DNA of 64,000 bases from Parvibaculaceae bacterium (GTDB lineage Bacteria > Pseudomonadota > Alphaproteobacteria > Rhizobiales > Aestuariivirgaceae). The position numbers and the translations under genes were made by a program. This document shows positions 1 to 8,617 of this stretch, in pieces. The first letter of the stretch is position 1. Each line of letters begins with the position of its first letter. The notes below the pieces were generated by a model. That model did not search any database, was not told where the DNA came from, and saw only the letters and a list, made by a program, of their open reading frames with translations. The stretch spans positions 338,004 through 402,003 of the forward strand of contig JBFWVM010000001.1 in NCBI GenBank assembly GCA_050246735.1. The letters are read 5' to 3'.

Positions 1-1
1 G

Positions 2-1576
2 CTCACCACCTATTTCGGCGCGCTCGGCGACAATGCCGGCCTTGCGCTCGACCTCCCGGTCGCGGGCCTGCATGTCGATCTCTGCGCCGCGCCGGAACAG
101 GGCGAGACGATCCTGAGGGATGTCCGGTCCGACCTCATATTCTCGCTCGGTCTCGTGAGCGGCCGCAACATCTGGCGCAACGATCTGACGCGAAGTCTCA
201 CCCGCATCGAGCGGTATGCCGGCCGGAACGGCATCGTCCTGGCGCCGTCCTCGTCGCTCCTGCACGTGCCGGTCGATCTCGCGCTTGAGCGCGATCTCGA
301 CCCCGAGATCCGGAACTGGCTCGCTTTCGCGACGCAGAAGATCGAAGAGACCGCGCTGCTGGCACGAGGACTGCGCGAGGGGCGCGTGGCGATCGCCGCC
401 GCGCTTGCCCTCTCGGACGAGGCCGCGGAGGAACGGAAATCCTCGGCCAGGATCCACGACAAGGTGGCGCAGCTTCGCGCCCGCAACGTGACGCACGAGA
501 TGACATTGCGCCTCAATCCGTTCAACCGGCGACGGCGGGTCCAGGCGGCGAAGCTCGGCCTGCCGGCCTTTCCCACGACGACCATCGGCTCCTTCCCGCA
601 GACGGCGGACGTGCGCAAGGCGCGGGCCGCCCACGCCAAGGGCGAGATGTCGGCGGAGGCCTATGACGCCTTCCTGCGCAAGGAGACGGAAGCGGCGGTG
701 CGCTGGCAGGAAGAGATCGGCATCGACGTGCTCGTCCATGGCGAGTTCGAGCGCAACGACATGGTGCAGTATTTCGGCGAGCAGCTTAGAGGCTTCACCT
801 TCACCAGGCACGGCTGGGTGCAGAGCTATGGCTCGCGCTATGTGCGCCCGCCGGTCATCTTCGGCGACGTGTCGCGGCCCAAACCGATGACCGTCGCCTG
901 GTCGGCCTACGCGCAGTCGCTCACCGAGCGGCCGTTGAAAGGGATGCTGACCGGTCCGGTGACGATCCTGCAATGGTCCTTCGTGCGGGACGACCTTGCG
1001 CGCAGCGATGTCTGCCGCCAGATCGCGCTTGCCATACGCGACGAGGTTCTCGATCTCGAGGATGCCGGCATCGGCATCATCCAGATCGACGAGCCGGCGA
1101 TCCGCGAGGGCCTGCCGCTGCGCCGCGCCGACTGGAAGGGCTATCTCGGCTGGGCCGTCGAGTGCTTCCGTCTCGCCGCCTCCGGCGTCAGGGACGAGAC
1201 CCAGATCCATACCCATATGTGCTATTGCGAGTTCAACGACATCATCGAGGCCATCGGATCGATGGACGCGGACGTCATCTCGATCGAGACGTCGCGCTCG
1301 AAGATGGAGTTGCTCGACGCCTTCGTCTCCTATCGCTATCCGAACGAGATCGGCCCCGGCGTCTATGACATCCATTCACCGCGCGTGCCCGAGGCCGACG
1401 AAATGGTGGGGCTTCTGATCAAGGCGAGGAGCCATCTTTCGCCCGACCAGATCTGGGTCAACCCGGACTGCGGGCTCAAGACGCGCAAATGGGAAGAGGT
1501 GCGGCCAGCTCTCGTCAACATGGTGGCGGCGGCCAGAAAGCTGCGCGGCGGCATCGACACCGCCGCGGTGGAATAG
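2..1576 (+). CDS. metE: Cobalamin-independent methionine synthase (5'-truncated by window edge)
   Basis: Frame open from position 2 (LTTYFG...LPVAGLHVDL). Contains GRNIWR, TTTIGSFPQT, HGEFERNDMV, GWVQSYGSR, THMCY, WVNPDCGLKTR. Confidence 0.97.
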   Translation, partial: LTTYFGALGDNAGLALDLPVAGLHVDLCAAPEQGETILRDVRSDLIFSLGLVSGRNIWRNDLTRSLTRIERYAGRNGIVLAPSSSLLHVPVDLALERDLDPEIRNWLAFATQKIEETALLARGLREGRVAIAAALALSDEAAEERKSSARIHDKVAQLRARNVTHEMTLRLNPFNRRRRVQAAKLGLPAFPTTTIGSFPQTADVRKARAAHAKGEMSAEAYDAFLRKETEAAVRWQEEIGIDVLVHGEFERNDMVQYFGEQLRGFTFTRHGWVQSYGSRYVRPPVIFGDVSRPKPMTVAWSAYAQSLTERPLKGMLTGPVTILQWSFVRDDLARSDVCRQIALAIRDEVLDLEDAGIGIIQIDEPAIREGLPLRRADWKGYLGWAVECFRLAASGVRDETQIHTHMCYCEFNDIIEAIGSMDADVISIETSRSKMELLDAFVSYRYPNEIGPGVYDIHSPRVPEADEMVGLLIKARSHLSPDQIWVNPDCGLKTRKWEEVRPALVNMVAAARKLRGGIDTAAVE

Positions 1577-1612
1577 CGCGCAGAGCCGGCCAGAAAGCGG
1601 CCGGCTCGCTTC

Positions 1613-1816
1613 TCAATGACGGGAAGCGTCGATGACATCCAACAGGAGTTCCCGCAGCCGCGCAATGCCGGCCGACCGGCCCTCCTTGCGGTCGAGGCGG
1701 GCTATTTCGCACGCCGCCGCGGTGGCAACGTCCGCGTCCGGCGGAAGATGCATCAGCCAGGCCAGGAGAACGTCCTCCGGCTTCTGCTGCGAGAGCCGAT
1801 CCGGCGTATGCTTCAT
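1613..1816 (-). CDS. 67-aa hypothetical protein (MKHTPDRLSQQ...)
   Basis: ATG overlaps the Rieske gene TGA (ATGA), indicating translational coupling; helical-looking sequence. Confidence 0.65.
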   Translation of the reverse strand: MKHTPDRLSQQKPEDVLLAWLMHLPPDADVATAAACEIARLDRKEGRSAGIARLRELLLDVIDASRH

Positions 1817-3042
1817 GGCCTGCCGATCTCCTCCAGATACCATCCGACATAGCGCAGCTGGTTGTACTCCATGGGCGCGATCGGTCCCGGTACGAAATAG
1901 CGCGAACGCACGCCGCGCGCCGCGTGCTCGATAATCTTCTTGTCCTCCCCGGTGGTCACCTTCCACAGCCAGGTCAGCCTGGCGGGATCGTAGTCGCGCC
2001 CTTCCACCGCATCGCCGCGCACCAGCCAGATGAGCTCCATCTCGCAGCTGTCGACGGTCTTGGGAATGAAGCGATAGATCATGCCGTGGTCGGGATAACA
2101 GACGAGGAAGCTCGTTCCTCCGACATGGATCGAGGTGACGCCGCCGTCATACCGGCGGAACTTGCCCATCAGAGGCGCTACCGGCGAGCCGTCCTCGCTG
2201 CCGCTCGAGGCGCCGTCGTAAAGCGCATAGCGGAAGACGTCGATAGCCTCCTTGCCCGACAGCGAGTTCTGCCAGTGATTGCCGGAGGTGATGCTGATGC
2301 CGAGCGCGCAGGTACGATCTTCCATCTGGCGGTTCATATCGGCGATATGTTCGGCCGGCTGTTCGAGCGCGTGAGTCTTCGAATATTCGGGATGTGCTGG
2401 CCCGCAATGATAGCATTCGACATAGTTCTCGACGGCGAGCTTCCAGTTCGCCTCGATCGCATAGGTCTCGCGATGCGCGACCTTGGCCTCGCTCCAGCCA
2501 TATTGCCCGCAACTCGCCCGCAATGACTGCTCGACGATGGTGAAGTCCAGCGGGGCATCGGCGAAGGAAATGAAGACCAGGCCTTCCGCTACGCGGACAT
2601 GCAGTTGATGCAGGCCGTGCTTCTCGCGGTCGAAATCTCTGGGCATCAGGCGCGCAGCCTTGAGGCGTCCATCGATGGAATAGGTCCAGGCATGATAGGG
2701 GCATATGAAGAAACGGGCATTGCCCTTCGGCCTGGTGCAGACCTCGGCACCCCGGTGGCGGCAGACATTCAGGAAGGCGCGGATGGTGCCATCGATCCCA
2801 CGCGCGACGATCACCGCCTCGCGTTCGAGGTTGAACAGCTCGAAATCGCCGGGATTGGGCAGAATGCTGGCATGGCCGATGCAGTGCCAGTGGCGGCGGA
2901 TAACGCGCTCCATGTCGCGTTCAAAGACGTCGGCATCGGCATAGAAGGATCGCGGCAGGCCATGTCCTCTCCGGCAGCTCGCGATCAACTGGTCGATTTT
3001 GTCGCCCGGTCTGTCCTGATGAAGAAGTGCAACAGTCGTCAT
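1813..3042 (-). CDS. Rieske non-heme iron oxygenase alpha subunit (quaternary-amine demethylase-like group)
   Basis: CRHRG...CPYHAW Rieske motif; ENYVECYHC..AH mononuclear Fe ligands; C-terminal ED; start MTTVALL with GAGGA upstream. Confidence 0.93.
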   Translation of the reverse strand: MTTVALLHQDRPGDKIDQLIASCRRGHGLPRSFYADADVFERDMERVIRRHWHCIGHASILPNPGDFELFNLEREAVIVARGIDGTIRAFLNVCRHRGAEVCTRPKGNARFFICPYHAWTYSIDGRLKAARLMPRDFDREKHGLHQLHVRVAEGLVFISFADAPLDFTIVEQSLRASCGQYGWSEAKVAHRETYAIEANWKLAVENYVECYHCGPAHPEYSKTHALEQPAEHIADMNRQMEDRTCALGISITSGNHWQNSLSGKEAIDVFRYALYDGASSGSEDGSPVAPLMGKFRRYDGGVTSIHVGGTSFLVCYPDHGMIYRFIPKTVDSCEMELIWLVRGDAVEGRDYDPARLTWLWKVTTGEDKKIIEHAARGVRSRYFVPGPIAPMEYNQLRYVGWYLEEIGRP

Positions 3043-3182
3043 CTTCTCGTTCCGTCCTCGCAACCCATGAGCGTCGGCGGTGCAGGTACGGAAGAAGAGG
3101 GGAGATTTGGCCGATCGGCATGCGGAACACGCGCCCGGCAAATCGCCACTCGACCGCCCACCGCAGTCCGTCGGCAATGCTC

Positions 3183-3357
3183 GAGGCTGGTTTCCGGGCT
3201 TGGGACTGTCCTTGCCGGACGGCCGCCCCGCCTTCCCGGGCCAAAGCCCAGTGGCGATTGGAGCGGCAATGCATCCCTTACCGTTACGGGGGTAGCGCCG
3301 GTTTCGCACCGGCTTCCCAATTATCCTGCCCTACGAGGGCAGGCACCCAAAGCAACC
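3183..3357 (-). ncRNA. Cobalamin riboswitch upstream of the Rieske oxygenase
   Basis: Minus strand reads GGGAAGCCGGTGCGAAACCGGCGCTACCCCCGTAACGGTAA...GCCACTGGG...GGGAAGG...AGCCCGGAAACCAGCC (B12 box). Confidence 0.92.
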
Positions 3358-3510
3358 ATGATTAGACCATGAGAGCCGCCTACCGGCAAGAGGTGAGAAG
3401 ATTTACGACGGCCGGCACAGGACCTCACCGATCAAGCTTCGGCCAAGCGGGCCCTCGACCTCTGTCCCTTCACATGAGCGATGCACGGCCTTCAATCCCG
3501 GAGATTGAAG

Positions 3511-4251
3511 TCATGCGTAGCTACCGGAAAGGCTTTGTCGGCCGCGGGCGGCAAGTTCGCGTTCGACGACAGCCCCAAAGGCGAGCCCGATGACCGTCCA
3601 CAGAATGAGCTGAATGCCGAGCGATGCCACGCGGAATTTCCAGAGCACGACGGCCGAAAACTGCTCGGGTACCTCATTGATGTCGGGCATCGCATATTTG
3701 ACGATCGCGAACGCTATCAGGAAGGCCAGCGCGGCGGCGATCGACGCATTCCAGCCGCCGATCTGATTCCACAGGCGCCGCGCCAGGCCGATTGCCAGAA
3801 TCATGGCCGCCAGAGAGATGACAATCATGATGAAGTAGAGCTCCGTGCGGTACCCGATGGTTTCCGGATTCCCTACCGATGGTGGATTGGCCGGATATTT
3901 GAGCCCTGGAACAATGATGATCGCCAAAAAGCCGAGGAGGGCTATCAGCGCCGACGTGCCTCGCGGGCCAAGCGAGCCGAGCCTTCCATAGGCAAAAGCA
4001 AAAACGAGGGAGAAGAGTCCGCCAAGTGCGGCGCCGTAGACCAATATGCCGGTCGCAAGGCCAATTCCGGCTTGCGTGGTCCGGCTGACAAGCTCGGGCT
4101 CCGGCGCCTCGCCGGCGGCCTGGGCCGTTTGTTCCTCGAAGGCAATAGCCTGGTCCACAGGCGGCTCGCCGTAAATGCGAGCGAATGCGAAAGCCAGTAT
4201 CCCTGCAACCAACCCGACAAGCATGCCCCGCAGCAGAAGTCTTCCGACCAT
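3511..4251 (-). CDS. cbtA: CbtA family predicted cobalt transporter subunit
   Basis: LLLRGMLVGLVAG, EPPVDQAIAFEE, LKYPANPPSVG, WKFRVASLG; lies after cbtB. Confidence 0.93.
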   Translation of the reverse strand: MVGRLLLRGMLVGLVAGILAFAFARIYGEPPVDQAIAFEEQTAQAAGEAPEPELVSRTTQAGIGLATGILVYGAALGGLFSLVFAFAYGRLGSLGPRGTSALIALLGFLAIIIVPGLKYPANPPSVGNPETIGYRTELYFIMIVISLAAMILAIGLARRLWNQIGGWNASIAAALAFLIAFAIVKYAMPDINEVPEQFSAVVLWKFRVASLGIQLILWTVIGLAFGAVVERELAARGRQSLSGSYA

Positions 4252-4268
4252 GATCGTTTCTCCTTAGA

Positions 4269-4338
4269 GCTCCCAAGATATTGATTTGGCGCGAATCCTT
4301 TTCGGCGAAGTGATTCCACTTCGCCGGGATGCGCGCTA
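4269..4338 (-). repeat. 70-bp palindromic intergenic repeat (RIME/REP-like), copy 1
   Basis: Reverse complement matches 33641-33710 at 67/70 nt; begins at the TAG stop of cbtB. Confidence 0.9.
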
Positions 4339-4545
4339 GTGGCAGGGAAAGCCGAGGAGGTGGCGGCCGTCATGCACGAACTCATGCACATACATGCCGG
4401 AGATGAGGGACGTCGCGCCTTCCTCCGCTCCGACGAAGTAAATGGCCAGCAGCAGCAACAGACCGGCGAAGAGGGCCCAGGGCAGCAATTCGCCCACGGG
4501 AATGGGTTCGGGCCGGACACCCGGTGACAGCGCAATATCGGACAT
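4336..4545 (-). CDS. cbtB: CbtB family predicted cobalt transporter small subunit
   Basis: 69 aa, one TM, C-terminal HEFVHDGRHLLGFPCH; SD GGAGG. Confidence 0.93.
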   Translation of the reverse strand: MSDIALSPGVRPEPIPVGELLPWALFAGLLLLLAIYFVGAEEGATSLISGMYVHEFVHDGRHLLGFPCH

Positions 4546-4594
4546 GAATGCCTCCTGGGATACGTCGTCCCAAAGCAAATGACTGGACGCGATG

Positions 4595-4720
4595 CATAGC
4601 GGTCTGACTTGCAATCCCCGAGCCATCGGGGGCTGATCACAGTGGCGAGACCGTGCCGGAATTCCACCGGCTTCGCTTGCATTGCAGCCTCGAAGAGTAT
4701 GGCGGCTGTCTGTTCGTGTC
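4595..4720 (-). ncRNA. Short-form cobalamin riboswitch upstream of cbtBA
   Basis: Minus strand GAAGCCGGTGGAATTCCGGCACGGTCTCGCCACTGTGA...AGTCAGACC. Confidence 0.85.
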
Positions 4721-4791
4721 AACGAAAGACCAGTAAAACCAAGCCCTTCGGCAACAAGTTTTCACTGCGGAAGATTACGGGATTGTAATTC

Positions 4792-5361
4792 ATGAAGGCA
4801 TTGCGGCTGACGCTCGTGTGCAGCGGGATCACACAGGGCATGCGGAAGCAGGAATTTCCGCTCGACCGGCCTTTGGAGAAGCGCTCCATCGACCTTGCAC
4901 ATTCGCTGCGCCCGCGGCTGGCGGCTGCGGACCGGGCTCTGTCCGCACCGGCGCTGCGTGCTCGCCAGACCGCCGACCTCTTGGGGCTGGATGCCACGGT
5001 GCGCGAAGATCTGCGTGACCAGGACCATGGCGTGTGGGCCGGAAAAGCGGTTTCCGAAGTCGAAGCCCTGGAGCCCGGCGCGCTCGCGGCCTGGCTGACG
5101 GATCCCGCCTATGCCCAGCAGGGCGGGGAGTCCGTCGCCGACGTGTCGAGACGCACAGCAGCCTTCCTTGACGAGATGCGCGGCGCATCCGGACATGTGA
5201 TCGCGGTGACCCATGGCGCCGTGGTGCGCGCGGCAATCGTGCACGTTCTGGCAGCGCCTTTGTCGGCGTTCCGGCATATCGATGCGCCGCCCCTCGGGCT
5301 CACCGACCTTCGTCACAACGGGTCGCGGTGGGTATTGCGCGCGCATGCCTTCCCGGAATGA
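4792..5361 (+). CDS. Histidine phosphatase family protein (CobC-like) with degenerate N-terminal motif
   Basis: LTLVCSG in place of RHG; LRARQTA, GES and AVTHGAVVRA motifs present. Confidence 0.8.
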   Translation: MKALRLTLVCSGITQGMRKQEFPLDRPLEKRSIDLAHSLRPRLAAADRALSAPALRARQTADLLGLDATVREDLRDQDHGVWAGKAVSEVEALEPGALAAWLTDPAYAQQGGESVADVSRRTAAFLDEMRGASGHVIAVTHGAVVRAAIVHVLAAPLSAFRHIDAPPLGLTDLRHNGSRWVLRAHAFPE

Positions 5362-5404
5362 ACCGGCCAAATACTTGCGGCCATGGTGAACATTTGCTAG
5401 CTGT

Positions 5405-5580
5405 CCCGCGTCGGTTTCCGAAAGGAATTGAAAGGGAATCCGCCGTCGGACGAAAATCCGGCGAACCGGAACTGCCCCCGCAACTGTAGGCGGTGAGCGG
5501 ACTGCGCATGAGCCACTGTGGCGCAAGCCATGGGAAGGCCGCAGCCCGCGACGATCCGCCAGTCAGGAGACCTGCCGACA
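5405..5580 (+). ncRNA. Cobalamin riboswitch upstream of ABC transporter
   Basis: AAAGGGAATCCG...CCGGAACTGCCCCCGCAACTGTA...GCCACTG...GGGAAGG...AGTCAGGAGACCTGCC. Confidence 0.95.
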
Positions 5581-5743
5581 AACGCTACGCAACGTGGCCT
5601 GGACGGGGTTGTCCGGGGAGGTGCAAAGTGGATTTTCGCCAAAGGCCGAGCCTGTGGGCGCCTTCATGCAGGGCGCTTCGCTTGCGGCTTTTGCGGGCCC
5701 TTCCCGTCCTGTCTTCGGTCGCCCTCACGATTGGAGACATGAG

Positions 5744-6754
5744 ATGACTACCAGAACCGTCCTTGCCGCGCTCTTCGTGGCAAGCTGCTTCGTCCTTCCG
5801 TCCGCCGCCGGGACCGCCTATCCGCTGCACCTGAAGAATTGCGGCGTCAACGTCACTTTCGACAAGGCCCCCGACAGCGCGGTGACCGTGGGACAGGCCG
5901 CGACCGAGATCCTCTATTCGCTGGGGCTCGCCGACAAGGTGAAGGGCACTTCGGTATGGTTCACCGACGTCCTGCCCGAGTTCAAGGACGTGAACGCGAG
6001 AATCGAGCGGCTCGCCGACAACGATCCGAGCTTCGAAAGCGTCGTGGCGAAGAAGCCCGGCATGGTCGCCGCGCAGTATGAATGGCATATCGGCCCGCAG
6101 GGCATCGTCGGGACGCGCGAGCAGTTCACCGACGTGGGTATCCCGACCTACATTCTTCCCGCCGACTGCTGGAACAAGGACAACGCCACAGGATCCGACG
6201 GCACCCGCTCCGCCATGTTCGTCATGGAGAGCATCTATGCCGGCGTGACCGAGCTCGCCCGGATATTCGACGTCGCGGACCGCGGCGAAAGGCTGGTCGC
6301 CGACCTCAAGGCGCGCGAGGCGGCGGCGATCGGGAAGGCGAAGGGACTCGGCCTCGACGGCGCCTCGGCCGTCTTCTGGTTCTCCTCGGCCGAGATGGAG
6401 GCCGATCCCTATGTGGCCGGGCGCAAGGGCCCGCCCGGCTACATGATGCAGGCGCTCGGCCTGAAGAACGTCGTCGAAAGCGACGAGGAATGGCCGACGG
6501 TGAGCTGGGAAACCATCGCCCGCGCCAATCCCTCGGTCATCGTGATCGCCAGGATGGACCGCCGGCGCTTCCCGGCCGATGACTACGAGAAGAAGCTCGA
6601 ATTCCTGAAAACCGATCCGGTGGCCAGCCAGATGGACGCGGTGAAGAACGACCGCATCGTGATTCTCGACGCGCATTCGATGGACCCGTCAATCCGCAAC
6701 GTCGCGGCGCTCGAGACGCTGGCCGGCGCCTTGCCGGCCTTCGGCCTGAAGTGA
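5744..6754 (+). CDS. Class III ABC substrate-binding protein (BtuF/FecB-like)
   Basis: Signal peptide; YPLHLKNCG, EILYSLGL, PSFESVVAKKP, AVKNDRI. Confidence 0.9.
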   Translation: MTTRTVLAALFVASCFVLPSAAGTAYPLHLKNCGVNVTFDKAPDSAVTVGQAATEILYSLGLADKVKGTSVWFTDVLPEFKDVNARIERLADNDPSFESVVAKKPGMVAAQYEWHIGPQGIVGTREQFTDVGIPTYILPADCWNKDNATGSDGTRSAMFVMESIYAGVTELARIFDVADRGERLVADLKAREAAAIGKAKGLGLDGASAVFWFSSAEMEADPYVAGRKGPPGYMMQALGLKNVVESDEEWPTVSWETIARANPSVIVIARMDRRRFPADDYEKKLEFLKTDPVASQMDAVKNDRIVILDAHSMDPSIRNVAALETLAGALPAFGLK

Positions 6755-7794
6755 CGGCGGCCGACGCCGTCCCCGCCAGGCACGTGACCGGCCTCGCTCT
6801 GCGTTCCGGCGCAGGCGCGGCCGTGCTCCTCCTGGCGATCGTCGCCGGGATCGTCGTCGGCGAAACGCCGCTGCCGGTCGAAACGGTGACGGCGGTCCTG
6901 GCGAAGCATCTGTGGGGCGCCGGGCATGCCGTCGATCCCATCGAGGCGGGCATCGTCTGGAACTACCGCCTGCCGCGCACCCTGGTCGCGGCAGGCTGCG
7001 GCGCCGGGCTCGCCATTTCGGGCGTCGTGCTGCAGGCGCTGGTGCGCAACGCGCTGGCCGATCCTTACCTGCTCGGCGTGTCCGCCGGGGCGTCGACCGG
7101 GGCGGTGGCGGTGACGATCCTGGGCGTGGGGGGCGGCGTGATCGGCATTTCCGCCGGGGCGTTCGGCGGCGCCGTCCTGGCTTTCGGGCTGGTGGCGGCG
7201 CTGGCGCGCGCGGCAGGCGGCGGTCCGGCGCAGATGATCCTCGCCGGCATTGCCGGATCACAGCTGTTCAACGCCCTCACGTCGTTCTTCATCGCCAGGT
7301 CGGCCAATGCCGAACAGGCGCGCGGGATCATATTCTGGCTTCTCGGGAACCTGTCCGGCGTGCGCTGGCCGGATGTGTCGCTCGCCCTGCCGGTCGCGGC
7401 GGCCGGATTCCTCGCCTGCCTCTGGTACTCCCGCGCGCTCGACGCCTTCGCCTTCGGCGCCGATTCCGCGGCTTCGCTCGGGGTGCCCGTGCGGCGGGTG
7501 CAAGCGGTGCTGATCGCAGCGACGACGCTGGTCACGGCGGTGATGGTGAGCCTCGTCGGGTCGATCGGCTTCGTCGGCCTCGTGATCCCGCATGCGGCGC
7601 GCTTCGTCACCGGCGTGCGGCACGGACGGCTGATCCCGGCGGCGGCGCTGGCCGGCGCGGTGTTCCTCATCGCCGCCGACGTCGCCTCGCGCATGCTGAT
7701 CAAGGGGCAGGTCGTCCCGATCGGCGTCGTCACCGCGCTGGTCGGCGCACCGGGCTTCGCGCTCATCCTCATCCACAGCCGGAGGCGGGGATGA
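6751..7794 (+). CDS. FecCD/BtuC family ABC permease
   Basis: RLPR, QALVRNALADPYLLGVSAGA, GSIGFVGLVIPH. Confidence 0.93.
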   Translation: MTAADAVPARHVTGLALRSGAGAAVLLLAIVAGIVVGETPLPVETVTAVLAKHLWGAGHAVDPIEAGIVWNYRLPRTLVAAGCGAGLAISGVVLQALVRNALADPYLLGVSAGASTGAVAVTILGVGGGVIGISAGAFGGAVLAFGLVAALARAAGGGPAQMILAGIAGSQLFNALTSFFIARSANAEQARGIIFWLLGNLSGVRWPDVSLALPVAAAGFLACLWYSRALDAFAFGADSAASLGVPVRRVQAVLIAATTLVTAVMVSLVGSIGFVGLVIPHAARFVTGVRHGRLIPAAALAGAVFLIAADVASRMLIKGQVVPIGVVTALVGAPGFALILIHSRRRG

Positions 7795-8558
7795 GGCTGT
7801 CGGCCCGCAATCTCGGCTGGTCGGCAGGCGGCCGCGCCATCGTCGCCGGCATCGATCTCGAGATCGAGCCGGGAGAGACCTTCGGCCTGATCGGCCCGAA
7901 CGGCTCCGGCAAGTCGACCCTCCTGCGGCTTCTGGCGGGAATCCTGCCCGCCGCCGCGGGCGAGGTGCGACTGGAGGGGCGCCCGATGGCCGTGCTCGGG
8001 CGGCGCGAAATCGCGCGGGCGGTTGCGCTGGTGGAACAGCAGGCGGAGACCGCCGAGCGCCTGACCGCCCGCGACGCGGTGGAGCTCGGCCGCACGCCCT
8101 GGCTGTCGCCGCTGGCCCCTTTTTCATCCACCGATGCGCGGATCGTGGACGAGGCGCTGGCCGCCGCCGGCATGGCCGGCAAGGCGGAGCAGGTATGGAC
8201 GACGCTTTCCGGCGGCGAGCGCCAGCGCGTCCACTTCGCCCGCGCTCTGGCGCAGCAGCCGCGCCTCATGCTGCTGGACGAGCCGACCAACCATCTCGAC
8301 ATCCATCACCAGCTCGCGCTGCTTCGCCTGGTCGCGCGGCTGCCGGTGACGGTGGTGATCGCGCTGCACGACCTCAACCAGGCGATGGGCTGCGACCGGC
8401 TGGCCGTGATGGAGGAGGGCCGCATCGCCGCCTGCGGCGCGCCGGAGGAGATCATGACCCCCGTCCGCCTCGCCGCGATCTTCCGCGTCGGCGCCAGGAC
8501 GCTGCGCGATCCGGCCGACGACGCCATGCAGTTCCGGTTCCATTGCCTCGAGGAGTGA
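7791..8558 (+). CDS. FecE/BtuD family ABC ATPase
   Basis: GPNGSGKST, LSGGERQRV, LLDEPTNHLD, LHDLNQA. Confidence 0.95.
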   Translation: MRLSARNLGWSAGGRAIVAGIDLEIEPGETFGLIGPNGSGKSTLLRLLAGILPAAAGEVRLEGRPMAVLGRREIARAVALVEQQAETAERLTARDAVELGRTPWLSPLAPFSSTDARIVDEALAAAGMAGKAEQVWTTLSGGERQRVHFARALAQQPRLMLLDEPTNHLDIHHQLALLRLVARLPVTVVIALHDLNQAMGCDRLAVMEEGRIAACGAPEEIMTPVRLAAIFRVGARTLRDPADDAMQFRFHCLEE

Positions 8559-8617
8559 GCGGGGAGATCGATCGTGTTTCTGCCCGTTGAACGCAGCCGC
8601 CCGTCCGCGGCGCTCGT

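Follow-up and report, generated by a model that had tools for sequence, protein, structure and literature searches.

The closest described system is that of Phaeobacter inhibens, in which a cobalamin (Cbl) riboswitch on gbcAB makes the cell change over from MtgBCD to GbcAB when cobalt is limiting (bioRxiv 10.64898/2025.12.19.695462). The principle of a riboswitch-controlled Rieske oxygenase serving as a backup is therefore already known for gbcAB from this 2025 preprint, and the presence of a riboswitch upstream of a Phaeobacter plasmid gbcAB was confirmed in our analysis. The preprint was the only report found when the literature was searched for B12-regulated Rieske or dioxygenase genes in Rhizobiales, and the older comparative-genomics flags of B12-regulated dioxygenase-like genes, which an earlier sequence-only reading of the present locus had mentioned, were not traced in the literature searched. 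Within group V of the Rieske oxygenases, a single Tyr/Asn position splits the non-demethylating group Va from the demethylating group Vb (Quareshy et al., PMC7948474), and the Tyr in CntA-type enzymes goes together with C–N cleavage or hydroxylation.

The window analysed here is a stretch of 64,000 nucleotides from the genome of a Parvibaculaceae bacterium. The gene called R below encodes a Rieske non-haem iron oxygenase alpha subunit of 410 aa on the (-) strand, from the ATG at 3045 to the stop at 1813, with the domains PF00355 (Rieske, 55 bits) and PF00848 (Ring_hydroxyl_A, 97 bits); its start Met is the same in the orthologue from locus L001 (MTAVTLLHQD...). On the same strand, a cobalamin riboswitch aptamer lies at 3168-3365 (-) (RF00174, 117.1 bits versus a gathering score of 31.5, E 1e-28). 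The covariance model search showed that the match covers model positions 1-189 of 189 and is not truncated, and our own covariance model R1 gave 172.6 bits for the same aptamer. The claim of a full cobalamin riboswitch upstream of a Rieske alpha subunit was thus confirmed, although the gap between the aptamer end and the ATG of R is 122 nt and not the 140 bp given earlier. The linkage was found again in 17 of 80 orthologous loci and, because of this recurrence, cannot be ascribed to chance. The R leader, or expression platform (3046..3167, (-)), contains a candidate SD-sequestering helix, as in the MFE fold CUCUUCUUCCGU pairs with ACGGAACGAGAAG just 5' of the ATG. With a z-score of -0.17 versus shuffled sequence, no better than the shuffles, this anti-SD helix is without statistical support. 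The terminator scan of the leader returned 0 terminator-like sites, and the control of R by its leader would be translational.

The Rieske [2Fe-2S] motif C-x-H ... C-x-x-H is present in R (CRHRG...CPYHAW), and the 2-His-1-carboxylate residues, namely H213, H218 and the Asp of the GEDKK stretch, align with the ligands of Stc2 and CntA. The top PDB matches, 3n0q, Stc2 (3vca) and CntA, all belong to group V. Glu210 (bridging), Cys211/Cys214, His213/His218 and Tyr208 of R align with E205, C206/C209, H208/H213 and Y203 of CntA, whose roles are described in PMC7948474 and PMC10952381. Tyr208 is carried by the motif ENYVECYHCGPAHPEYS, and the group-V hallmarks E210, C211 and C214 are found in ENYVECYHC. 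By its sequence, R is classified as a group-V (quaternary-amine) Rieske oxygenase of an uncharacterised clade. The sequence-only reading had proposed a phylogeny against GbcA, Stc2 and CntA, and R turned out not to be close to GbcA/Stc2: in the maximum-likelihood tree the R clade (100/99) is separated from the GbcA/Stc2/gbcA-like clade (100/100), and the identity of R is 32-35% to GbcA/Stc2 and 34% to the gbcA-like protein of the same genome. On the GbcA HMM (NCBIfam NF058607) R scored 273.5 bits, below the cut-off of 670, as was also the gbcA-like paralogue with 543 bits. An assignment of R as an orthologue of GbcA, Stc2 or CntA was ruled out by the HMM cut-off, the tree and the motif. The closest paralogue of R in the window genome (C1:424858-426066) is 45% identical and neighbours an amino-acid ABC transporter, a racemase, a ferredoxin reductase and a second Rieske gene, a context that gave no clue to the substrate of R.

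The CntA-type Tyr of R lies in the motif ENYVECYHCGPAHP, which is almost identical to NYMECYHCGPAHP of CntA and is invariant, Tyr included, in 120/120 R homologues. The demethylases have Asn at the same position, as do the genome's own gbcA-like protein, S. meliloti Stc2 and P. denitrificans GbcA, the motif of the GbcA/Stc2 clade being ENNRECYHC. The mark of group Vb, an Asn where CntA has Y203, is hence absent from R, and since Tyr replaces the Asn of the known N-demethylases of the group, demethylation by R is not assured. As this position is the Va/Vb divider of PMC7948474, R could be of the CntA/choline-monooxygenase type (group Va), with Tyr208 holding the trimethylammonium head through a pi-cation contact and a backbone carbon being hydroxylated. 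The products would be trimethylamine and an aldehyde, or choline would be converted to betaine aldehyde, which would supply BHMT/GbcAB with glycine betaine during B12 shortage. In several operons R comes last, behind BHMT, which would fit such a betaine supply. The remainder of the protein argues against it: R aligns with GbcA/Stc2/3n0q over nearly its full length (residues 16-408, 223-258 bits), whereas the alignment with CntA is limited to residues 30-224 in the N-terminal half (141 bits). The C-terminal region of R does not align with the carnitine pocket residues of CntA (F258, N270, Y295, Y315, F319), and the Trp of the R stretch LTWLW falls in the alignment on Stc2 Trp353, which contacts the product. 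Moreover, a formaldehyde dehydrogenase gene (fdhA) follows R in three loci and R is flanked elsewhere by two DMGDH-type demethylases, both of which fit stepwise N-demethylation, and we know of no B12-dependent counterpart of choline oxidation in these bacteria. We consider a group Va-type activity of R unlikely.

The gene next to R is a 67-aa ORF (1816-1613, (-)) whose start overlaps the R stop (ATGA; ccATGAag), followed by the converging 3' part of metE, encoding the B12-independent methionine synthase (2..1576, (+)), which is 76% identical to MetE of the metagenome contig L103 and ends 37 nt from the small ORF stop. The coupling of this ORF, its lack of a ferredoxin Cys motif (0 Cys) and the convergence of metE were all read correctly from the sequence alone. 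Between the two converging genes, a GC-rich hairpin, AGCCGGCC-gctttct-GGCCGGCT (1584..1606), was read by eye and is possibly a terminator shared by the small ORF and metE; it has no U-tract and was not flagged by the terminator scan. On the other side, directly upstream of the R riboswitch, the cobalt transporter subunit gene cbtA (3511..4251, (-); PF09490, 254 bits) and cbtB (4336..4545, (-); PF09489, 37.6 bits) are preceded by an AdoCbl riboswitch (RF01482; 4545..4702, (-); 53.2 bits versus a gathering score of 50). The third Cbl riboswitch in the window (5395..5593, (+); RF00174, 109.8 bits) stands before a BtuF/EitA-like ABC transporter, whose binding protein (5594-6754, PF01497) scores 304 bits on the NCBIfam EitA-like model, which is under the cut-off.

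Three further riboswitch units are found directly to the left of the window, with a gbcA-like (543 bits) and a gbcB-like gene (350 bits), with nrdAB and with metE itself, the riboswitch of the last being located just left of the window (L090 16814-17013, (+)). The window genome thereby holds six Cbl riboswitches in ~25 kb, for gbcAB, nrdAB, metE, R, cbtBA and the BtuF-type ABC transporter. The earlier statement that no reductase is nearby holds for the operon and the window, no GbcB gene being located beside R, but not beyond them: a GbcB-type FNR/[2Fe-2S] reductase (NF058606, 350 bits) is encoded ~8 kb beyond the left end of the window, in its own Cbl-riboswitch operon. The genome also contains seven MttB-family genes. 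Orthologues of BHMT and of the canonical MetH were not found in it, the best matches being ~30% identical, and a modular corrinoid methionine-synthase layout is present in place of MetH. Its MttB2 orthologue is surrounded only by further MttB genes and a LysR gene.

Among the 17 riboswitch-linked loci, the riboswitch (RS) is followed by R alone, by small-R or small-BHMT-R, where small denotes a gene of the 67-aa ORF family, or by the longer arrangements gbcA-gbcB-small-R, gbcA-gbcB-small-BHMT-R and gbcA-BHMT-R. The gene located directly 3' of R in L041, L042 and L058 encodes a glutathione-independent formaldehyde dehydrogenase (TIGR02819, 718 bits, above the cut-off). A gbcA-like gene is also present in 16/16 other R-bearing genomes tested. 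Most R orthologues have no riboswitch and are found in betaine, carnitine or MttB catabolic clusters: in Mesorhizobium, such an R adjoins an MttB-family gene, while in Phyllobacterium and Neorhizobium it adjoins two DMGDH-type demethylases and carnitine-to-betaine genes, with no reductase next to R in the Phyllobacterium-type clusters. Because the contexts also take in putA and a Cys/Met PLP enzyme, no single R substrate emerges. A tight co-occurrence of R with the R-adjacent MttB subfamily was considered and rejected, as the subfamily occurs in 9/20 R-bearing genomes versus 30/121 in the order, a modest enrichment.

The same neighbourhoods bear on a role of R in making or salvaging cobalamin, such as an O2-dependent step on the corrin ring or the lower ligand. 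Such a role would suit a gene under a Cbl riboswitch, which most often controls cob and transport genes, next to cbtBA and a His_Phos protein weakly resembling CobC (77 bits versus a cut-off of 163), and also the order RS-R-small-cobF (cobF: TIGR02434, 342 bits) in contig L103, outside the 17-locus set. Against it stand the catabolic clusters that hold most R orthologues, away from any riboswitch, and the active-site signature of R, which is that of quaternary-amine oxygenases. R was present in 4/121 genomes of the order only, and a core B12-synthesis step is expected in far more. In addition, cobF also follows nrdAB-small in L102 and L114, which indicates that it travels with the small protein and not with R. 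We give this role, which the sequence-only reading had offered as an alternative, hardly any credence.

The 67-aa ORF encodes a real three-helix protein of an unannotated family. Its AF2 model (pLDDT 86.4) is a three-helix bundle, a Foldseek search of the model against PDB gave 0 matches with E <1, and neither Pfam nor NCBIfam returned anything for the ORF or for the family. A word-indexed search with the ORF alone returned only itself; the family was recovered by applying tblastn and jackhmmer to related loci and by a profile search, and comprises at least 195 clusters at 50% identity. A role as ferredoxin or Rieske beta subunit was rejected: the complete absence of Cys excludes a ferredoxin, and the helical bundle is not an NTF2-like fold.

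The sequence-only reading had taken the ORF for a coupled partner of R, and an R-specific effector or assembly subunit in place of a beta subunit or ferredoxin would account for the ATGA coupling of the two genes in the window and in L103, for the small family standing immediately 5' of R in seven loci and for the 67-aa ORF being the sole copy of the family in the window genome. A search of 80 orthologous loci found no conserved ATGA-coupled ORF downstream of R, and in relatives the small gene is located upstream of R or elsewhere. The family occurs after nrdB in five loci (L054, L102, L112, L113, L114), 5' of cobF, BHMT, fdhA or a BtuF-like protein, or first after the riboswitch, and several of these loci have no Rieske gene nearby. 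Conversely, L001, L053, L068 and all non-riboswitch R orthologues are without the small gene, and no Cys or His is conserved in the family for a metal centre. Since the family is found in such varied Cbl-riboswitch operons, the ORF is not a Rieske-specific partner, and a function restricted to R is very improbable. The proposed co-occurrence held for Cbl-riboswitch operons, in which the family was always found where there was enough DNA to tell, and not for R specifically.

Taken together, it is rather likely that the riboswitch, R and the small ORF belong together as a single unit of a B12-starvation regulon and that R is an oxygenase for a trimethylammonium compound, replacing an MttB route. 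This explanation starts from the observed riboswitch, domains, motifs, clade, operon architectures and genome inventory of the R locus. When cobalamin is plentiful, it would bind the aptamer and the leader would switch the genes off, probably by masking the ribosome-binding site, whereas under scarcity of cobalamin or cobalt R and the 67-aa protein would be made. R would act as the oxygenase component of a two-component group-V Rieske monooxygenase, most likely receiving electrons from the GbcB-like NAD(P)H reductase encoded ~8 kb away, which in relatives shares an operon with R. The substrate would be a betaine-family trimethylammonium compound, with N-demethylation and formaldehyde release as the most likely reaction, and R would thus replace an MttB-family corrinoid-dependent methyltransferase route, which cannot run without B12. 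The 67-aa three-helix protein would be a general member of the regulon and not a redox partner of R.

The earlier proposal of an O2-dependent substitute for a corrinoid-dependent demethylation is accordingly the best supported one, because R belongs to group V, is found in relatives within the same riboswitch operons as gbcAB-like genes, BHMT and formaldehyde dehydrogenase, and in other relatives abuts MttB-family genes, while the window genome holds seven MttB genes and a modular corrinoid methionine-synthase layout in place of MetH; demethylation itself is less certain in view of the 32-35% identity to GbcA/Stc2, the separate clade and the Tyr. A point against glycine betaine as the substrate is that three betaine demethylases would then be encoded together in the operons that contain gbcA, BHMT and R. 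A more tentative joint reading, possible though not favoured, is that the 60-100-aa three-helix protein, found only in Cbl-riboswitch operons beside nrdB, gbcB, BHMT, R, cobF, fdhA or a BtuF-like protein, is an unrecognised B12-starvation factor that could act on several B12-independent enzymes or in corrinoid/cobalt trafficking or regulation, and that R performs a new quaternary-amine oxidation; with its Vb-like scaffold and Va Tyr, R could then take a new substrate or cleave a C–N bond instead of demethylating.

Cobalt and B12 supply shape the use that soil and marine Alphaproteobacteria make of abundant osmolytes from plants and algae, among them betaines, carnitine and choline. The R locus suggests that the B12-backup set is larger than GbcAB and includes a second, uncharacterised clade of oxygenases whose active-site signature is a hybrid, a reductase used in common and a small protein family marking B12-starvation operons of quite different enzymes. 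Once tested, this would assign a substrate to an orphan oxygenase of group V and open a first way of approaching an unannotated B12-regulon member.

Compared with known systems, the R locus is most similar to gbcAB of P. inhibens and other Alphaproteobacteria, in which a Cbl riboswitch likewise forms part of the 5' UTR upstream of a group-V Rieske gene and, by the proposed logic, an O2-dependent, B12-independent route replaces the corrinoid-dependent MtgBCD when cobalt or B12 is scarce; the window genome itself has such a riboswitch-gbcAB unit ~8 kb from R. Unlike gbcAB, R forms a separate clade, has no reductase gene of its own, carries Tyr instead of Asn and is coupled to a three-helix protein. 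With the group Vb N-demethylases of proline and glycine betaine (Stc2/HpbC/GbcA/BmoA), R shares homology over the whole protein (223-258 bits to 3vca and 3n0q), the Rieske and 2-His-1-carboxylate motifs, the bridging Glu, Cys-x-x-Cys and the Trp equivalent to Stc2 W353, but differs from them in its 32-35% identity, its separate clade and Tyr208 in place of the Asn that marks Vb. With CntA and group Va, including plant choline monooxygenase and OxyBAC, it has in common the near-identical N-Y-x-E-C-Y-H-C-G-P-A-H-P stretch with the pi-cation Tyr, whereas the alignment to CntA is limited to the N-terminal ~200 residues, the C-terminal catalytic half of R is Vb-like and the genes found around it (fdhA, DMGDH-type enzymes, BHMT) favour demethylation over TMA release. 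The isozyme pairs metE/metH and nrdAB/nrdJ follow the same regulatory logic as proposed for R, with metE replacing a corrinoid methionine synthase and nrdAB replacing NrdJ as gbcAB replaces MtgBCD, and riboswitch-metE and riboswitch-nrdAB units flank the R locus; unlike in these pairs, the B12-dependent counterpart of R, an MttB-family methyltransferase, is only proposed.

The Rfam analysis showed three cobalamin-type riboswitches within the window: RF00174 at 3168-3365 on the minus strand (117.1 bits, full model), RF00174 at 5395-5593 on the plus strand (109.8 bits) and the AdoCbl riboswitch RF01482 at 4545-4702 on the minus strand (53.2 bits). The first precedes the Rieske oxygenase gene R (3045-1813, minus strand), a 410-aa frame with Rieske [2Fe-2S] and Ring_hydroxyl_A catalytic domains. 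The ATG of R at 3045 lies 122 nt past the aptamer; the sequence-only reading had rightly recognised a full riboswitch there and had put the spacing at about 140 bp. The R stop codon TGA sits within an ATGA whose ATG starts a 67-aa frame without cysteine (1816-1613, minus strand), and metE (2-1576, plus strand) converges on this small ORF, ending 37 nt past its stop; all of these elements of the stretch 1613-3357 had been located correctly. A GC-rich hairpin without a U-tract is visible by eye between the small ORF and metE and was not flagged by the terminator scan, which likewise detected no terminator in the R leader. The MFE fold of this leader puts CUCUUCUUCCGU against the SD region, a pairing not better than that of shuffles. 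Cobalamin binding would switch the R operon off, probably at translation. In the closest relative (L001:7230-7510), the gap between R and metE contains no small ORF and carries an inverted pair of CTTCTCCCGC(A/T)(A/T)GCGGGAGAAGG elements, repeat-like in look.

The top NCBIfam model for R was GbcA (273 bits vs a cut-off of 670), and the best solved structures were 3n0q (258 bits), Stc2 (3vca, 223 bits) and CntA (141 bits, N-terminal half only). Among the matches listed, about 120 homologues of roughly 409 aa (68-83% identity) form the orthologous group, which spans Mesorhizobium, Phyllobacterium, Shinella, Ensifer and Pseudaminobacter as well as some Paracoccaceae; all members are annotated as ring-hydroxylating dioxygenase alpha subunit, nothing more specific. 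The family is rare: a survey of 121 genomes from across the order found it in 4. The comparison with GbcA, Stc2 and CntA that the sequence-only reading had proposed placed R in none of them by the tests applied. In the Maximum Likelihood tree, R and its orthologues (support 100/99) stand apart from the clade (100/100) that unites Paracoccus denitrificans GbcA, Sinorhizobium meliloti Stc2 and gbcA-like genes from the same genomes, to which R is 32-35% identical. The nearest paralogue in the window genome (within G000:C1:416000-434000) is 45% identical with Gln at the signature position discussed below. The same region also encodes another Rieske protein and a ferredoxin reductase, together with a racemase of the Asp/Glu type, an M24 peptidase, an amidase and an ABC transporter for amino acids.

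No reductase gene was found in the R operon or anywhere in the window, and the sequence-only reading had noted none nearby; however, the genome carries a GbcB-type reductase gene at a distance of about 8 kb, preceded by a riboswitch of the class that also stands before R. Three further RF00174 matches were obtained left of the window (C1:320000-338100). One leads a gbcA-like gene (GbcA HMM, 543 bits) with a gbcB-like FNR/[2Fe-2S] reductase gene (GbcB HMM, 350 bits) downstream of it, another leads nrdA-nrdB and the third metE. Six cobalamin riboswitches thus lie in about 25 kb (window 1-8600 plus G000:C1:320000-338100), and their targets are gbcAB-like, nrdAB, metE, R with the small gene, cbtBA and a BtuF/EitA-type ABC transporter, which gives the region the look of a B12-starvation island. 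A cobC-like histidine phosphatase gene (4792-5361) also lies amid the riboswitches. GbcB would be the most likely electron donor of R.

A covariance model of 13 riboswitches (R1) was run over 80 orthologous loci, together with ORF and BLAST mapping. Where a riboswitch (RS) leads R, the genes are all on one strand and R is last or next to last. The architectures are RS-R (L001, L053, L068, L030), RS-small-R (L023, L034), RS-small-BHMT-R (L036, L054 and the separately fetched Mesorhizobium locus L089), RS-gbcA-gbcB-small-R (L028, L041, L042, L056, L058), RS-gbcA-gbcB-small-BHMT-R (L061, L069 and a JGI contig), RS-gbcA-BHMT-R (L066) and, in a metagenome contig outside the 80 loci, RS-R-small-cobF (L103). 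The "BHMT" gene matches PF02574 below the NCBIfam cut-offs, and its N-terminus is presumably close to that of animal betaine-homocysteine methyltransferase. Downstream of R in L041, L042 and L058 are a glutathione-independent formaldehyde dehydrogenase, fdhA (TIGR02819, 718 bits, above cut-off, about 7365-8555), and a GbdR-like regulator; fdhA above cut-off also follows the small gene at L115:653-1843. All 16 other R-bearing genomes tested carry a gbcA-like gene (490-533 bits).

The majority of R orthologues have no riboswitch. The R gene of Phyllobacterium, Neorhizobium and Ensifer belongs to or adjoins an operon that contains a LysR gene and two genes for 815-aa FAD/GcvT proteins of the dimethylglycine-dehydrogenase type, beside carnitine-to-betaine genes; in many Mesorhizobium and in Rhizobium setariae a MocR-type regulator and a divergent non-Pyl member of the MttB family stand directly before R, and in Shinella putA is followed by R. 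On a Leisingera plasmid, a 40%-identical relative is flanked by genes for an FAD oxidoreductase and an MttB-family protein, while genes for an ABC transporter and a protein of the enolase superfamily lie alongside. Inside the non-Pyl MttB-family genes of Mesorhizobium and Rhizobium, PYLIS_3 (the Rfam pyrrolysine insertion sequence of mttB) scored above the gathering threshold at L024:5430-5529 and L073:5447-5546, which is probably conserved coding sequence and not a Pyl element. MttB-subfamily matches with one in-frame TGA, TAG or TAA in the aligned stretch occur in genomes of the same order (G019, G051, G055, G060, G077, G079, G124 and others); pseudogenes, recoding or alignment overrun are possible causes.

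The active-site stretch of R, ENYVECYHCGPAHPEYS, is invariant in 120 of 120 homologues, and the gbcA-like, Stc2 and GbcA sequences compared read ENNRECYHC. In the alignment with CntA, Tyr208 of R corresponds to Y203 (pi-cation contact to the ammonium head), Glu210 to E205 (bridging glutamate), Cys211/Cys214 to the cysteine pair C206/C209 and His213/His218 to the iron ligands H208/H213, while a Trp of R is aligned with W353 of Stc2. The group V Rieske oxygenases, which act on quaternary amines, are divided by the Tyr/Asn position into Va (Tyr or Phe: CntA, plant choline monooxygenase and OxyBAC, non-demethylating) and Vb (Asn: the N-demethylases GbcA/BmoA and Stc2) (Quareshy et al., PMC7948474). 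Judged by its sequence, R is a group-V enzyme and a Va/Vb hybrid, because its scaffold and W353-equivalent Trp are Vb-like but the signature Tyr is of the Va type. R probably oxidises a trimethylammonium compound. The Va tyrosine speaks for a CntA- or choline-monooxygenase-like reaction, which we regard as unlikely; N-demethylation releasing formaldehyde is favoured because of fdhA, the dimethylglycine-dehydrogenase-type neighbours and the Vb-like scaffold. Glycine betaine as the substrate fits the Phyllobacterium and Neorhizobium clusters, with three enzymes for three demethylations, but would imply redundancy in the gbcA-BHMT-R operons. Other candidates are dimethylglycine, proline betaine and further betaines.

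The word-indexed database search with the 67-aa ORF alone found no family; a conserved one was recovered by tblastn and jackhmmer on related loci, with the core P-x-P-E-E-V-F-x-x-W-L-x-x-x-P...A-A-x-x-Q-I-x-L-I-D-R...L-R-x-L-L and no conserved Cys or His. Of the 1.84 billion representatives searched with a profile, 195 matched with an E-value of 1e-3 or less and 87 with 1e-10 or less; most are 60-125 aa long, and all named members are called "hypothetical protein". Neither Pfam nor NCBIfam has a model for the family. AlphaFold predicts with confidence (pLDDT 86.4) a bundle of three helices, for which the PDB gave no significant match. The small gene, single-copy in the window genome, follows R in the window and L103, precedes R or BHMT in 12 loci, follows nrdB in RS-nrdAB units (L102, L112, L113, L114) and in L054, where the riboswitch is off the locus, comes first after the riboswitch before a BtuF-like protein and metH (L104), and on the short contigs L105 and L115 precedes BHMT or fdhA. 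All copies with sufficient upstream DNA lie in cobalamin-riboswitch units. The 67-aa ORF is a real gene, which marks B12-starvation operons in general and is not the coupled Rieske partner assumed earlier. Next after it in L102, L103 and L114 is cobF, precorrin-6A synthase (TIGR02434, 342 bits; L102:5228-5986, L103:4998-5756, L114:5225-6004), after nrdAB-small and R-small alike; thus, a B12-synthesis gene is embedded in operons of B12-independent enzymes. Public calls join the small protein to the translated riboswitch, which runs on into it in P0250 and P0270, or to the gbcA N-terminus (P0128 being the further such call); these fusions are annotation artefacts that help conceal the family.

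The window genome has seven MttB-family genes, one of them 59% identical to the MttB adjoining R in Mesorhizobium. No BHMT or canonical MetH orthologue (best matches about 30% identical) and no close fdhA (33%) were found in it. Separate homocysteine-methyltransferase-like and pterin-binding-like pieces are present, in agreement with the modular corrinoid system known from marine bacteria (PMC12478193), which suggests an MtgBCDE-type system; the regions concerned are C9:193500-197900, C13:134187-149540 and contigs C1, C4, C8 and C35. Given these genes and absences, methyl-amine use and methionine synthesis appear to lean heavily on corrinoids, and therefore a B12-independent fallback set makes sense. 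R would replace an MttB-type corrinoid methyltransferase; the earlier idea of a B12-independent substitute stands, corrected for the reductase and the small ORF, while a role in corrinoid or lower-ligand salvage is unlikely.

This kind of system is already known. The nearest precedent, described in a December 2025 preprint (bioRxiv 10.64898/2025.12.19.695462), is Phaeobacter inhibens, which has a cobalamin riboswitch in the gbcAB 5' UTR and whose mutant growth data indicate that GbcAB takes over from MtgBCD when cobalt is limiting. According to the preprint, this arrangement is widespread among Alphaproteobacteria, S. meliloti included. We confirmed a riboswitch before gbcAB of a Phaeobacter plasmid, whose GbcA is 58% identical to the gbcA-like protein of the window genome. 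The P. inhibens case belongs to the GbcA/Stc2 clade, for which the window genome also has a riboswitch-gbcAB-like unit, whereas R forms a different clade that the passages of the preprint consulted do not mention. Moreover, in a P. denitrificans preprint GbcAB and HpbC2B2 overlap on betaine and stachydrine, which cautions against naming the substrate of R by homology. Compared with these systems, three things are new: the presence within the B12 regulon of an orphan clade of group-V oxygenases that bears a Va/Vb hybrid signature, the proposed shared-reductase layout and the small-protein family.
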